A stretch of 64,000 nt of DNA from Eledone cirrhosa (Eukaryota), in the NCBI GenBank assembly GCA_964016885.1, contig OZ024750.1, positions 26,288,001 through 26,352,000 of the forward strand. The letters run 5' to 3'. A program made the translations under genes and the position numbers. Positions 43,602 to 49,100 of this stretch are shown piece by piece. Numbering within the stretch: the stretch's first letter is position 1; each line of letters begins with the position of its first letter. The notes beneath the pieces are model-generated. The model searched no databases and was not told where the DNA came from. It saw only the letters and a program-made list of their open reading frames with translations.

Positions 43602-44212
43602 TATTTATTAAAATAACAGATTAAAGTTTAAGCAAAGAATCGCTGCTTCACTCTTAACGGGATCTTCTGAAACTGACACATTCAATCTGTAAACGCAGAA
43701 GTGAATATTTCAATAAACGTTGCAACCGGAGGAAGACAGGAAGACGATACTTTGGTTCGTGGAAACGTTCCCTGGCAAAGAACGGGAAAAAACGAATATA
43801 ATATGTCATTATTTGGAGCGGTGAAAAACAATTACACGCAAAGACAGAACCACGTTTATGGTATAAAAGAAATCGTAGACTAATATTCTCTTACGTGGTT
43901 CGTAGAGACGTTCTCTGGCAATGAACGAAAAAAACGAAGATAATACGTCATATACCATAAACGTGGTTCTGTCTTTGCGTGTAATTGTTTTTCACCGCTC
44001 CAAATAATGACGTATTATATTCGTTTTTTCCCGTTCTTTGCCAGGGAACGTTTCCACAAACCAAAGTATCGTCTTCCTGTCTTCCTCCGGTTGCAACGTT
44101 TTTTTTAATATTCACTACTGAGTTTACAGATTGACTTTGTCAGTTTCAGAAGATCCCGTTAAGGGTGAAAGCAGCGATTCTTTGCTTAAACTTTAATCTG
44201 TTTTTTTAATAT
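43602..44212. mobile_element. Fold-back element with ~260-bp arms (single-arm copy at 52015-52445)
   Basis: 43605-43865 is the reverse complement of 43951-44210. Hammerhead-like CAGAAGA-tccc-gttaa-ggg-t-GAAA at 44147-44170. Confidence 0.8.
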
Positions 44213-44274
44213 ATATATATATATATATATATATATATATATATATATATATATATATATATATATATATATAT

Positions 44275-45107
44275 AGCGGCGATGAATTAGTTTAGCGAGG
44301 ATTTTTATATGAAATCGTGTGTCGAAACAGATATTGTTATACTTGGGGAGGGTCATATTTGCGTAATATTGCCAGAATTAATGACAGAACACACTCACTG
44401 TTTGGTTGGTTTTCGCTTCTCGCTGTCTTTTATATCTGCGATCTAACTTACTCGGTCCTCAATGTTGCCATTGACTGACCGACGGTCAAAAATAATACAG
44501 ACACAATATAGACACAAACACATATATATAGTTTACATAATTTACATAAATCTTTCGTTGCACATCTGCAACATCGTCAGTGGTGTTATATTTTTTCCTC
44601 CTGTTGTGTTGTATGTCTACGCCATTTTTTACATTTTTTTTTTTATTCAGTCTGTCTATTTATTTATTTATTTATTTGCTTGTTTGTTTATTTTATTTTG
44701 TCTTCTTTGCGCATGCGTTTGCGTGTGTATATAGTGTTATGTGTGCTGTGTGACTAGTGTGTATAGTGTTGTGTCTGCTGGGTGACTAGTGTGTGTTTAT
44801 GTGCTTGTTGTTATTGTGCTTGTGTATGTATTAATTTATCTTATTTTATTTTATTTTAACTGACGATTTTGCAGATGTGCAACGAAAGATTTATGTAAAT
44901 TATGTAAACTATATATATGTGTTTGTGTCTATATTGTGTCTGTATTATTTTTGACCGTCGGTCAGTCAATGGCAACATTGAGGACCGAGTAAGTTAGATC
45001 GCAGATATAAAAGACAGCGAGAAGCGAAAACCAACCAAACAGTGAGTGTGTTCTGTTATTAATTCTGGCAATATTACGCAAATATGACCCTCCCCAAGTA
45101 TAACAAT
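44275..45107. mobile_element. Fold-back element with ~250-bp arms, each holding a hammerhead core
   Basis: 44331-44581 is the reverse complement of 44859-45107. CUGACGA-u-GUUGCA-gaug-UGCAAC-GAAA at 44547-44580 (-), with a one-mismatch copy at 44860-44893 (+). Confidence 0.8.
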
Positions 45108-45165
45108 ATATATATATATATATATATATATATATATATATATATATATATATATATATATATAT

Positions 45166-45525
45166 ATAAAGAAAAAGAGATGAAATCGAAGATGCAACTG
45201 AAGTCTTATGTTTTTAAAAAATATATATATTTATTTGGTTCCTTTACCGGTTTCGCAGTTCTTCTGCTTTTCAAAAGGTGAGTTGAGATGGAGGGTCTGT
45301 GGTTTTTCTCACAGATGTGAGAAAAACCACAGACCCTCCATCTCCACTCACCTTTTGAAAAGCAGAAGAACTGCGAAACCGGTAAAGGAACCAAATAAAT
45401 ATATATATTTTTTAAAAGCATAAGACTTCAGTTGCATTTTCGATTTCATCTCTTTTTCTTTATACTTTCACTCGTGTAGGACACCTCGGTTATTTTTCAT
45501 TTTGTAAAAAAAACCCCACTTTCTA
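45166..45525. mobile_element. Near-perfect ~300-bp palindrome with 2-nt loop plus 3' extension
   Basis: Centre ctcaca-ga-tgtgag at 45314-45315. Arms 45166-45313 and 45316-45463. (TA)n flanks. Confidence 0.85.
45351..45388 (+). ncRNA. Minimal hammerhead, U3-A8 core variant (mirror copy 45241-45278, - strand)
   Basis: CCUU-UUGAAAA-GCAG-aagaa-CUGC-GAAAC-cg-GUA/-AAGG. Confidence 0.65.
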
Positions 45526-45561
45526 ATATATATATATATATATATACATATATATATATAT

Positions 45562-47130
45562 AACGAAGGAAATGTGGCAAGGAACCAGGTGGACCATAAC
45601 GCACCAAAGTACTCAATACTTAGTGTAGTAGTGTGGGTAATAGGAACGAGTAGGACTCCGACGGCTGAGCTCAAGCCGTTTCGACGGCTAATTCTGGACT
45701 AAATGAAAATTTTTATCCTGGTATATGAATAGCCGAGCTTCTTTGGGGGTAATTCCATATATGGTAAAAGTGATTGTCACAAGGATTGGTCAAAAGTTTG
45801 TTGTTGAGACACATAATTCTATCATGGCAATTTGTGGAAGGAAGGGGTAGCTGAACCTGCCAGTAGAAGAAAGAGGGAGAGAGGGTGGAGGAAACCCAGT
45901 CGTGCGTTGATAGTGCCAACTACAGCAGGGCAGGAGGTCAAGGAAGTATACTAGGGAGGAGGAGGGGGAGGAGTCGAAACAATAAGTAAAACAGTATGGG
46001 GTAAATATATAGAAAAATACCGAGAATGTTAAAAAAACAATTAAATATAAAAAAAACAATTTCTGGTTACTATTTCCTAAGGACAGCTATCAAGTCTCTC
46101 ACTGGTACTGCTGGACTAAAGAAAAGTTTACTAGGTGGGTCGGAATTATAATGAGACCCTTTTAAGAGGTAGTAGTAATCAACCGACTATATCTTACGGT
46201 GACGGGTCAACAAGTGGGGGGCCAAAATACTAAAGAAACTACCACGAAATAATAATTCTGAGTCCCGAGACTAATACGAAATAATTGTTTCTACCCTAGG
46301 CACAAGGCCAGTAACCACCCAGTGCAAAAAATAAACTAATACGAAATAATAATTCAGAATCTCGAAAAAGAATACTAATACTATCTCTAAGGGTGCCGCT
46401 ACGATACAAAAATTCTAGTGCAAACTACATAACTGCTCGTACGAAGTATATGAACAATTTGATACGGAAAATTAATTCAGAGTCGCCCCCCCCCCCCCAA
46501 AAAAAAAACTGATATACGGGAAATTAAAGCAAAGATACCACTAAGAAATGTAGAAAGCACGGAAAAGGGGCAGCCATCGGATAAGAGGCCAAGTATCCGG
46601 GGTCTATCACATCTGCTATAAAAAGCGGAGTCGGCCAATTCTATCATAGAATAGGGGAAGGGGATGGGGGTACTGAGGCTACAAAGGACCGAGGGGCTGC
46701 CTCGAGTAGGCGAGAGAGGGAAAAGGACGACGACAAAGAAAGAGGACTGGGGTGGAAGGACTAAGGAAGGGATGGGGGGAAGGAAATATAGAGGAAACGA
46801 TAAAAAGATATAAAAGAAGATCTTATGTCTACCTTTGCAGGCAGGGGTTACCCATTACAAAGTCGGCAAGTGGGGTGTTACAGCCCTTGTCTACCCCTTC
46901 CCCCCCGGTCATTATGGGGTTTCAGGGCGAGGTAAGTCCTACGCCATGATAGAATTATGTGTCTCAACAACAAACTTTTGACCAATCCTTGTGACAATCA
47001 CTTTTACCATATATGGAATTAACCCCTGAGAAGCTCGGCTATTCATATACCAGGATAAAAATTTTCATTTAGTCCAGAATTAGCCGTCGAAACGGCTTGA
47101 GCTCAGCCGTCGGGGTCCTACTCGTTCCTA
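45562..47130. mobile_element. Non-coding PLE-like element with ~190-bp inverted termini
   Basis: 45640-45828 is the reverse complement of 46942-47130. Hammerhead-like fold at 47022-47116. (TA)n flanks. Confidence 0.75.
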
Positions 47131-47184
47131 TATATATATATATATATATATATATATATATATATATATATATATATATATATA

Positions 47185-48456
47185 TACACATTATGAAGAG
47201 AGAAGAAACGTTTAGATATAATTAGTAATAAGATGTATCATACCTAAACTGCTTCTAGGTTCCTCGACTACGTAGTTTCCTGGCATAATCAAAAACAATA
47301 CATCATAGAGATATAGAGCTTTTGTGAAGTCTGCCGACTTATCAAGAGGATACCTCATTTTACTAGCTTCAAAGAGCACGTCTATAAGATGTGAGATAGA
47401 ATCCCAAAAGGCGGAAGGGTAGTCAATCACGTGATACGACGGTCAAGAAACAGACCTAAGCCCTTTATAACCCTGAAAAAATACCACGGAGGCGGAGGGG
47501 GTATTCATATCGAGGCCGTAGAAGAGGTGGTTAAGGGGGCAAGAAGTATGAGTAATTAAAATTATAACATCAATATAATTAAGAGATAGAGTATAATGAA
47601 GAATCTGGCATGTTAAACAAACTGATATGATAAAGATGTATGGAATTGACATGTGAAAACTGCTATAGGGTACATTAGATATAGTGTTAAGGTGGCGACG
47701 AGATAACAGTAACCACAAAAATATACTTAGAGACAGGATTTATGAGGTATCTACTATGCTGTAGGTATTCTGGCAATAAACTGGAGATTTACTTATTATT
47801 TGACAGATACACATTTTCGTTTTATTAATTTAGTGAGGATGATAGTTTTTATGTGGTGTTAAATGGAGTTGTAGATTCGTTATTTAAGTAGTCTATACTA
47901 AAGGTAGGGATTGTTAGTTCGAATCATGGGGCTTTAGTTTTCACAGCATCAATAACAAATTGTGTATAAATAAGACAGTAATACCAACAATAATAGAAAC
48001 AATAAAGGTAATAAAATAGTAAAATATGCATGGTAGATATAAGGAACATGATGAATAATATTAGGGATACATTGAGGTGTTCATAATAATAATAAGAATA
48101 AAAAGAGGAAAGTAAGATTTCAAGGAGTGTAGGAGTAATAAGATAATGTACTTAGGATTAGGTTCATCTGTTAGAGATCATGAGTGCTAATGAGAGATAT
48201 AATTGTTTGGTCCGAAGGAGTGAGTAACAGGGAAGTTGGGATTGATTTATGGGCTGATAAGATAGTTGTAGACATTACTGATACATCCCACTGGTATAGA
48301 ATTAAGGAGGCTATAAAGTGTTTATAGAAGATTATGATTCTGTAGTGGGCTGTGTGAGAAGGCAGATTTCATATGTTAAAAGCTAAGTGATATTGGTTCG
48401 AATCACGGTGGTTTAAATCTCGCGAATTTTGTAGCAATCCTATGTCTGCAGACATA
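47185..48456 (-). mobile_element. 5'-truncated PLE starting at the endonuclease C-terminus
   Basis: The - strand begins [16 protein letters not shown], followed by a long 3' region with a hammerhead. (TA)n flanks. Confidence 0.65.
47261..47350 (-). ncRNA. Hammerhead, U3-A8 core variant, extended stem II
   Basis: UCCUC-UUGAUAA-gucGGCA..(~45 nt)..UGCCag-GAAAC-uacgua-GUC/-GAGGA. Confidence 0.65.
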
Positions 48457-48801
48457 TATATATGTATATATATATAATATATATATATATATATATATAT
48501 ATATATATATATATATATGTCTGCAGACATATATATATATATATATATGTCTGTAGACATATATATATATATATATATATATATATATATATATATATAT
48601 ATATATATATATATATATATATATATATATATATATATATATATATATATATATATATACACATATATATATACATATACACATATACATATACATATAT
48701 ATATATACATATATATATATATACATATATATATATATATATATATATATATATATAATTATATATATATTTATATATATATATATATATATATATATAT
48801 A

Positions 48802-49100
48802 TACAATATTAAATAAATGGAAAACTATATTTATAAAACCATATTTATTTCATTATATATATTTCGGGGATATCATATTAACAATATGCTATGCCTTCAT
48901 CAGACAAAATACAATATATTGTATTTTGTCTGATGAAGGCATAGCATATTGTTAATATGATATCCCCGAAATATATATAATGAAATAAATATGGTTTTAT
49001 AAATATAGTTTTCCATTTATTTAATATTGTAAATATACTCCAAATATTTGTCGAGTGCTTTTATATCAGTTATAAATATTTACTAGTTGTAACCCAACAA
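48802..49100. mobile_element. Spacer-less 230-bp palindrome of two back-to-back hammerheads plus 3' extension
   Basis: Centre acaata|tattgt at 48916/48917, arms 48802-49031. HHR at 48922-48987 (+) and 48846-48911 (-). Same family as the end of 22276-24431. Confidence 0.85.

Follow-up and report, generated by a model that had tools for sequence, protein, structure and literature searches.

Among the described clades of Penelope-like elements (PLEs), Hydra elements carry an RWK-like motif, a DKT motif, a CxCX5C linker and a C-terminal endonuclease, insert into (TA)n and bear hammerhead motifs; Neptune elements are marked by DKG, a CX2-5CxxC linker and a CCHH-type C-terminal endonuclease; and Naiads, with an N-terminal GIY-YIG endonuclease and a DKA motif, are described as lacking canonical hammerheads (PMC8557442; this and the other papers named below are cited for parts of their text). 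Inverted truncated copies and one-sided tails are known features of PLEs (PMC8557442, PMC3846280); how the inverted repeats and tails arise, and the partial tandems with them, is described as an unresolved question (PMC8557442). Here we analyse five fold-back blocks in a 64,000-nucleotide stretch of the Eledone cirrhosa genome (the window; contig OZ024750.1, G000:C10:26288001-26352000, in a genome of 3.0 Gb and 1,796 contigs), labelled E1 to E5 in the order of the positions 43602, 44275, 45166, 45562 and 48802 given in an earlier note on this DNA. Each block consists of two 5′-truncated copies of the 3′ end of an element, placed head to head, and the five are very probably by-products of PLE insertion; the E3 palindrome, which recurs at hundreds of sites, appears to be re-made from different parent subfamilies and not copied as a unit.

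The longer elements from which the blocks derive, their parents, compare closely with two groups of PLEs. The parents of E1, E4 and E5 are like Hydra clade elements in the order of reverse transcriptase (RT) and GIY-YIG endonuclease, in motifs, linker, the hammerhead within the pseudo-long terminal repeat (pLTR) and insertion into (TA)n, whereas their tails measure about 80-90 nt in place of 30-40 bp and the E1 and E4 hammerhead cores are variant (PMC8557442). The E3 and E2 parents resemble Neptune and Nematis PLEs in their DKG or DKS motif, CX4CxxC linker, CCHH-type endonuclease and targeting of microsatellites, and the inverted 5′-truncated copy with a one-sided tail found in those PLEs also occurs in the E2 and E3 families. 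The open reading frame (ORF) of the E2 parent holds a long asparagine (Asn)-rich insert (L274:3923-6187), as in rotifer Penelope families such as Pen of Adineta vaga (PMC3846280). In contrast to other Neptune elements, the E3 family is dominated by short copies of fixed length, and its parent usually has a separate upstream ORF of ~400 aa that overlaps the RT-endonuclease ORF.

Other systems share parts of this picture. The protein of the Anolis Poseidon element PAc, a predicted dimer, cuts and extends both strands in vitro at AT-rich targets and starts reverse transcription at two sites flanking the tail; hammerhead cleavage is not needed and uncleaved RNA serves as template (Frangieh et al. 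2024, PMC11167929). The two start sites, the extension of both strands, the AT-rich target and the uncleaved template would have counterparts here. Set against PAc, the presumed start sites here carry short TA matches to the target, each being used once per insertion, and inverted pairs and run-off products are not treated in the parts of the PAc main text covered (PMC11167929). In Schistosoma, minimal hammerheads of the U3-A8 variant lie in pairs on opposite strands, 100-700 bp apart, as here; the same report describes minimal PLE hammerheads with a palindromic helix III and U3-A8 covariation, and ascribes the opposite-strand pairs to truncated PLEs, which in the parts covered are not analysed as recurrent structures (Cervera and de la Pena 2014, PMC4209133). 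Non-LTR (animal) retrozymes, with their type-I hammerheads (bioRxiv 10.64898/2026.07.22.740005), and non-autonomous Chlamys elements such as MRC1 resemble the blocks in being short, ORF-less and derived from PLE pLTRs. Retrozymes and MRC1 are head-to-tail repeats, whereas we find head-to-head pairs or solo stubs without a same-strand hammerhead pair, and an assignment of the blocks to the non-LTR retrozyme class was dropped for want of head-to-tail, same-strand hammerhead units. Miniature inverted-repeat transposable elements (MITEs) and foldback DNA transposons are likewise short, high-copy palindromes; here the ends show no terminal inverted repeat (TIR) symmetry and the parent is a retroelement. 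In L1 twin priming, an inversion arises from a second priming event at an internal annealing site, and the 3′ end is not present twice in the resulting pieces; E1-E5 differ in that both arms contain the element 3′ end.

Results

Arms, tails and junctions of the E3 family

A genome search with each block gave 4,844 (E1), 2,166 (E2), 1,595 (E3), 7,680 (E4) and 95 (E5) candidates, of which 40 per block were scored. All 40 scored E3 loci, a set ranked by likeness to the query, match the 358-bp unit end to end at 95-98%; 363 loci share the exact 28-bp junction, and at 1,212 the sequence folds back no more than 30 bp from the junction point. By hand count, the centres of the first 50 of these 1,212 hotspot loci are of 5 nt in 18, of 2 nt in 11, absent in 6 and of other kinds in 15, some with TA filler.

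We compared the two arms in 60 unselected exact-junction loci from the start of the 363-locus list, six being skipped (five of them already in the scored set). The tail lies on the GA side in 32 and on the TC side in 23 (P=0.28 against 50:50), is unscorable in 5 and never occurs on both sides, and each of the 51 intact loci bears exactly one. Of the occurrences of five common variants, 82 involve both arms and 6 a single arm; the arm haplotypes are also present in long parent copies; private variants are one-sided in 62 cases and mirrored in 5. One junction occurs on at least four parent-shared haplotypes, and one haplotype occurs with several junctions. A copied palindrome would hold junction and tail in register and would transmit one-sided variants; as this is not seen, the palindrome appears to have been re-made repeatedly. 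Conversion strong enough to hide copying would also mirror private variants and, given 62 against 5, is too weak. Tail side, haplotypes and junction variants led us to reject the recurring junction as a sign of a replicating unit, and a MITE or self-copying palindrome of fixed ends, junction and orientation is likewise at odds with the 32:23 tail sides and with junctions and haplotypes that are unlinked.

A locus of another kind, L297 (G000:C3:292519991-292520353), holds head-to-tail 165-bp repeats of the E3-family pLTR end, tail and first codons, without hammerhead, together with an inverted copy; the pattern resembles what reverse transcription rolling around a small circle, or a series of template jumps, would leave.

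A shared 5′ end in the E3 family

The E3 parent contains TATAAAA, 23 nt and then the A of CCAGATGTG, so that the hotspot at which many arms end (+1) lies 30 nt downstream of the TATA box. This is the spacing of a TATA promoter. The promoter of Penelope itself has been located in the pLTR (PMC2377424). A core 24-mer identifies 8,553 arms of the family, 2,726 of which run on exactly into the parent; the first 100 listed comprise 50 of parent type and 50 not (hand count), and in 20 hand-picked non-parent loci every one of the 21 arms has its end at +1 to +4; these arms are either solo stubs flanked by TA tracts or parts of fold-backs whose other arm is shorter. Roughly half or more of the E3-family arms thus terminate at the hotspot, and short copies of fixed length (about 150 or 215 nt) are abundant in the family, both as solo stubs and as head-to-head pairs. 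The 17 head-to-head pairs among the first 100 arms, again by hand count, are long/long in 7 cases, short/short in 10 and mixed in none.

Copies that span the ORF behave otherwise: none of 35 has its end 10 nt or less from +1 (chaining failed at 2 more loci), and neither has any of the 15 listed inverted arms of such copies. A simple model in which full-length RNA begins, and full-length copies terminate, at +1 was rejected on the 0/35 and replaced by two RNA classes. No stable RNA hairpin is predicted at +1, and the predicted hammerhead cut falls ~70 nt downstream. In three restriction-site-associated DNA (RAD) runs of another study, depth rises about 1.7- to 3-fold across +1, where each run has 168-197 loose-ended reads, and strand-switch joints are anchored at or near the site. 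We consider it likely that the hotspot is the transcription start.

Parent elements

With E1, E2, E4 and E5 as queries, the 40 best candidates each correspond to one arm, the long one, and run on upstream into a longer element. Near-full-length parent copies of all five families, in which the ORFs are linked to the arms, encode an RT followed by a C-terminal GIY-YIG endonuclease. Those of E1, E4 and E5 have RWR/RWC, DKT and CxCX5C linker motifs; the E3 parent (L272) has DKG, a CX4CxxC linker and a CCHH-type endonuclease, and the E2 parent shares this linker and endonuclease type but reads DKS and contains the Asn-rich insert. Pfam detected GIY-YIG in the E3 parent, with RVT_1 just under the cut-off, and gave no hit for the other seven of the nine parent pieces; it also missed three PLE fragments in the window. 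Because most parent pieces were missed, the clades were read from motifs, by which the E1, E4 and E5 parents would be of Hydra type, the E3 parent of Neptune type and the E2 parent of Neptune or Nematis type. The five parents are related to each other by BLASTP, and the E3 parent has 767 relatives at E<=1e-30. The marks of Naiads were found in none of the five, all of which have a C-terminal endonuclease.

In tandem copies of E2 (L094, L102), E5 (L036, L049) and E3 (17 loci) the tail continues into the 5′ untranslated region (UTR) or the start of the ORF, and in those of E2 it codes for part of the ORF N-terminus; two same-strand arms are present in L272, L273, L274 and L277. Since the tails run on in this way, each arm corresponds to a pLTR. 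The inverted 5′-truncated copy with a one-sided tail, as known from PLEs, is seen in these families.

In most copies of the E3 parent (L271:619-3752, L272:588-4054) the upstream ORF lies in a different frame from the RT-endonuclease ORF, and the copies L254 and L259 read through the boundary between the two at a T run. The upstream ORF had no Pfam hit; the pair may possibly reflect a programmed frameshift or a two-ORF Neptune element. Adjoining an E1-family insertion, L276:1-2815 holds Rep and helicase ORFs that we take, from their motifs, to be Helitron-like.

Junctions and ends in the other four families

Among the best 40 candidates per block, the junctions of E1, E2, E4 and E5, which themselves rest on the assembly, were not found at unlinked loci. 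The E4 junction does recur at L122 (G000:C10:26265594-26270106), which was set aside as a segmental duplication 66 kb upstream: its flanks are shared at 97-98% and the duplicate spans E4 and the following 1.3 kb. Candidate E1 junctions at L062, L063 and L067 were rejected, as their fold-back positions differ. In several E4 copies (L136, L141, L142, L148) it is the short arm that bears the tail. E5 ends pile up 272-287 nt from the 3′ end, at an Inr-like (initiator-like) TCACT, in 11 of 28 main arms and 7 of 10 inverted arms.

Hammerhead motifs

At gathering score, Rfam reports no hammerhead in the window, and none at E<=10 in the region; the many sub-threshold microRNA (miRNA) matches of the region scan were rejected as generic hairpins. 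A strict type-I hammerhead descriptor that tolerates one core deviation is passed, among the five blocks, by both E3 arms and the right arm of E1 only, the latter as a U4A variant. The predicted E3 hammerhead has a helix I of 4 bp, a U3-A8 core and a palindromic helix III, and shuffled E3 arms pass in 0 of 300 trials; its two copies lie on opposite strands, and none forms a same-strand pair. The family majority sequences of E2, E4 and E5 contain hammerhead-like cores with defects (a weak helix I in E2, a CUGAGAA core in E4, a weak helix II base in E5), and in the window the left arm of E1 reads GAAG in place of GAAA and the core of the left E4 arm is broken. The earlier note's hammerhead in both arms thus stands for E3, is limited to the right arm in E1, and is weak or variant in E2, E4 and E5. 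We infer that the hammerheads are passengers carried in the pLTR. Further hammerhead motifs occur in the window at 22469, 51555, 53092, 58343, 60265 and 61882.

Layout of the five blocks

The five inverted-repeat elements lie where the earlier note had placed them, bounded mostly by (TA)n, with arms of 121-251 nt at 95-99% identity: 219 nt at 95% (E1), 251 nt at 99% (E2), 149 nt at 98% (E3), 189 nt at 98% (E4) and 121 nt at 99% (E5). The arms overlap at the junction by 3 nt in E1, 0-1 in E2, 2 in E3, 5 in E4 and 4 in E5. A tailed arm had been claimed for most of them; all five blocks have a one-sided tail, and E1 starts at about 43515 and not at 43602. No TIR or target-site duplication (TSD) pattern is visible at E1-E5, as the note had said, and inside (TA)n flanks a TSD cannot be read. 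The description of the blocks as ORF-less needs amending for E4, where roughly the final 39 codons of the parent ORF form the start of the long arm.

E1 opens with a tail of ~86 nt (43515-43600, minus strand), over which the match to the parent copy L277 starts at 43515. This tail borders directly on the (TAA)n that terminates the non-LTR element upstream, and in other copies of the family it ends at TA. The E1 long arm (43601-43953, minus), the 3′ end of a putative Hydra-type PLE, has a damaged hammerhead-like motif, and the inverted arm (43951-44216, plus), without tail, carries the U4A-variant type-I hammerhead at 44142-44192 beyond the ~3-nt overlap. After the (TA)n target tract at 44210-44275 come the long arm of E2 with its tail (44276-44858, minus; tail 44276-44330), the 3′ end of an element of probable Neptune/Nematis type with the Asn-rich insert and a hammerhead core near 44580, and the inverted arm (44859-45109, plus), truncated a single base ahead of the hammerhead core (CTGACGA at 44860). 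A further (TA)n target tract (45107-45168) separates E2 from E3, where the arm without tail (45165-45313, minus) has an intact predicted U3-A8 minimal hammerhead at 45239-45278 and the arm with the 62-nt tail (45312-45526, plus; tail 45465-45526), a pLTR of probable Neptune type running from the inferred transcription start, has its hammerhead at 45351-45390.

The target tract between E3 and E4 spans 45527-45561, with (TA)n at 45527-45546. The long arm of E4 with its tail (45562-46947, minus; tail 45562-45639) comprises the last codons and 3′ UTR of a putative Hydra-type PLE, and the inverted arm without tail (46943-47131, plus) has a variant-core hammerhead at 47022-47116 and a 5-nt junction overlap; a (TA)n target tract follows at 47129-47186. 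Between 47187 and 48450 lies unrelated repeat DNA, in which the parent proteins give no match. E5, between (TA)n at 48772-48803 and from 49123 onward, has an arm without tail (48796-48918, minus) and an arm with tail (48915-49122, plus; tail 49038-49122), a pLTR of probable Hydra type with a hammerhead-like motif at 48923-48986; the two arms overlap on a 4-nt palindrome.

Tracts of (TA)n and fragments of PLEs and of non-LTR retrotransposons are dense in the window as a whole, with fold-backs throughout. Two adjacent non-LTR elements, presumably R4/Dong-like from their motifs (Pfam gives RVT_1 only), occupy 36553-43503, with (TAA)n tails at 40092-40115 and 43417-43503, and E1 is located at the end of the second tail. 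More fold-backs between TA tracts lie at 1435-2794, 25125-27728, 34000-34978, 61497-61688 and 61746-62383, and another E2-family fold-back pair at 28845-29185. Other PLE fragments (3112-4536, 22282-24564, 51907-52999, 54792-55679, 62836-63214) include Hydra-type ORF pieces, E5 relatives and one unfolded E1 copy. At 48443-48560, three palindromes of ~14 bp, with CTGCAG or a variant at their centres, lie within (TA)n and are possibly minimal fold-back remnants or a local tandem duplication.

Discussion

Taken as a whole, the blocks are best explained, with good probability, by separate insertions of five PLE families into (TA)n in which the palindrome is built during integration. Each family has two fixed 3′ end points, one on each side of the tail, and both of these tail-boundary priming sites bear a short TA match to the target; on balance the evidence leans towards dual priming on one RNA. 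The endonuclease would cut both strands within (TA)n, and both DNA ends would then prime complementary DNA (cDNA) synthesis on a single RNA, starting at the far and the near boundary of the tail respectively. In E1, E2, E4 and E5 the cDNAs would halt at random points; in the E3 class they would continue to the 5′ end of the RNA, at the pLTR transcription start, and run off. Their 3′ ends would be joined through 0-5 nt of microhomology or a short filler; capture of a single cDNA would give a solo stub flanked by (TA)n. As ORF-spanning copies never stop at the hotspot, a second class of RNA reaching further upstream, by read-through of a tandem or from a circle, is assumed for them. In full, the proposal is that a protein dimer primes both ends of a (TA)n cut at two fixed sites on a single RNA, that the commonest product of the Neptune family is a run-off cDNA pair or single, giving thousands of MITE-like palindromes without a master copy, and that full-length partial tandems come from the second, longer or circular RNA; the chances of this complete version seem to us about evenly balanced.

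Several observations weigh against this account. The start site rests on TATA spacing and a pile-up of DNA ends, not on an RNA 5′ end; the RAD data carry a restriction bias, and the joints listed do not include the exact E3 junction. In vitro, the RT start site is the same on both strands (PMC11167929), and since every intact E3 insertion has exactly one tail, some coordination of priming has to be inferred. The second RNA class is an added assumption. The arm haplotypes differ in 2 of the 30 top E3 copies (L005, L026), so that the template is not always single, and the clade names are based on motifs, not on a tree with reference sequences. Outside E3 the ends are less sharply defined: E5 has no TATA at -30 and only the Inr-like TCACT, E1 and E2 show no clear end hotspot in samples biased towards long copies, and E4, in a sample with the same bias, gives a hint only (3 of 13 inverted arms at 230-233).

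The earlier note had left two readings side by side: extreme PLE truncation products with an inverted pseudo-LTR, which is right for all five blocks, and non-autonomous hairpin elements replicating as units. The latter, applied to E3 as a MITE- or retrozyme-like element copied whole with its arms kept alike by conversion, is very improbable. The end-to-end match at 40 of 40 loci (95-98%), the 363 exact junctions and a predicted hammerhead intact in both arms would suit it, but the 40 loci were chosen by likeness to the query, and the flipping tail, the mirrored parent-shared haplotypes unlinked to the many junction variants and the mostly one-sided private variants do not; moreover, the TATA box that lies upstream is missing from the E3 palindrome, and in a transcript of the palindrome the hammerhead would be buried within a hairpin of 149 bp. 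The recurrence of fold-back junctions at unlinked loci, which the note had proposed to look for, is found for E3 and not for the other four, and even the positive answer misleads, as the palindrome appears to be re-made. Of this second reading one element stands in altered form, namely the abundant fixed-length short copies of the E3 family. Nor do the retrozyme-like character (the two hammerheads are on opposite strands, not in tandem) and the Naiad-like mobiliser (all five parents have the GIY-YIG endonuclease at the C-terminus) survive. Assembly or chimeric-read artefacts are scarcely credible: long perfect hairpins are a known artefact of long reads, but here the arms differ by private substitutions and terminate at two sites specific to the family, both of which abut (TA)n, some centres contain filler, and strand-switch joints anchored at the E3 hotspot are found in raw reads of another study.

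A route by which one run-off cDNA snaps back and is copied, or an antisense RNA primes itself (PMC3846280), the endonuclease then resolving the hairpin to leave a one-sided tail (PMC8557442), is unlikely, although it accounts for the common haplotypes, the short/short coupling, the single tail and the palindromic junction centres, and a 2-nt snap-back would suit the 32 loci with the tail on the GA side. Only one polarity can come from simple snap-back, since the copy cannot exceed its template in length, whereas 23 of 55 loci show the opposite polarity; the tail on the short arm in the E4 copies named above and the existence of solo stubs ending at +1 also speak against it, and it holds only with an added resolution or template-jump step. 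We regard it as decidedly doubtful that pausing of the RT, cleavage of the RNA or a splice acceptor, and not a transcription start, accounts for the E3 hotspot. The site reads CAG/ATG, and PLE 5′ UTRs can hold introns (PMC2377424), but a pause should halt ORF-spanning cDNAs as well, and 0/35 end there; no stable structure is predicted at +1, and the predicted hammerhead cut is ~70 nt downstream. The upstream DNA is AC-rich and lacks a polypyrimidine tract, TATAAAA is found at -30, and the junctions show no upstream-exon sequence in common.

Insertions of these families have (TA)n on either side, and their members lie side by side across TA tracts at 5 of 60 E3-family loci, which fits the idea of chained insertions that each leave (TA)n for the next; the order of insertion cannot be read. 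The blocks are new families of known PLE clades, and the chain itself is ordinary for this genome. The element class and the head-to-head geometry are known, and the fixed-length class of E3 and the coupling of its arms are new: no paper dealing with head-to-head run-off products of PLEs of fixed length, or with coupling between arms, came up in our literature search, with the supplements of PMC8557442 and PMC11167929, which may hold such families or structures, outside its range, and the parts of PMC13282606 and PMC12602865 covered contain nothing on palindromes.

All together, thousands of fixed-length products provide countable rules (one tail per insertion, either arm tailed, coupling of arm lengths, a common haplotype) by which snap-back, endonuclease resolution and dual priming can be separated, and the E3 hotspot allows the position of an RNA 5′ end, CC[A]GATGTG, to be predicted sharply. 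They also carry a warning, in that identical recurring junctions are no proof of a self-replicating element, and such stubs are liable to be misannotated as MITEs, short interspersed elements (SINEs) or miRNA hairpins, as the sub-threshold miRNA matches illustrate. If the proposed model is true, this genome records the in vivo origin of the inverted repeats and tails of PLEs.

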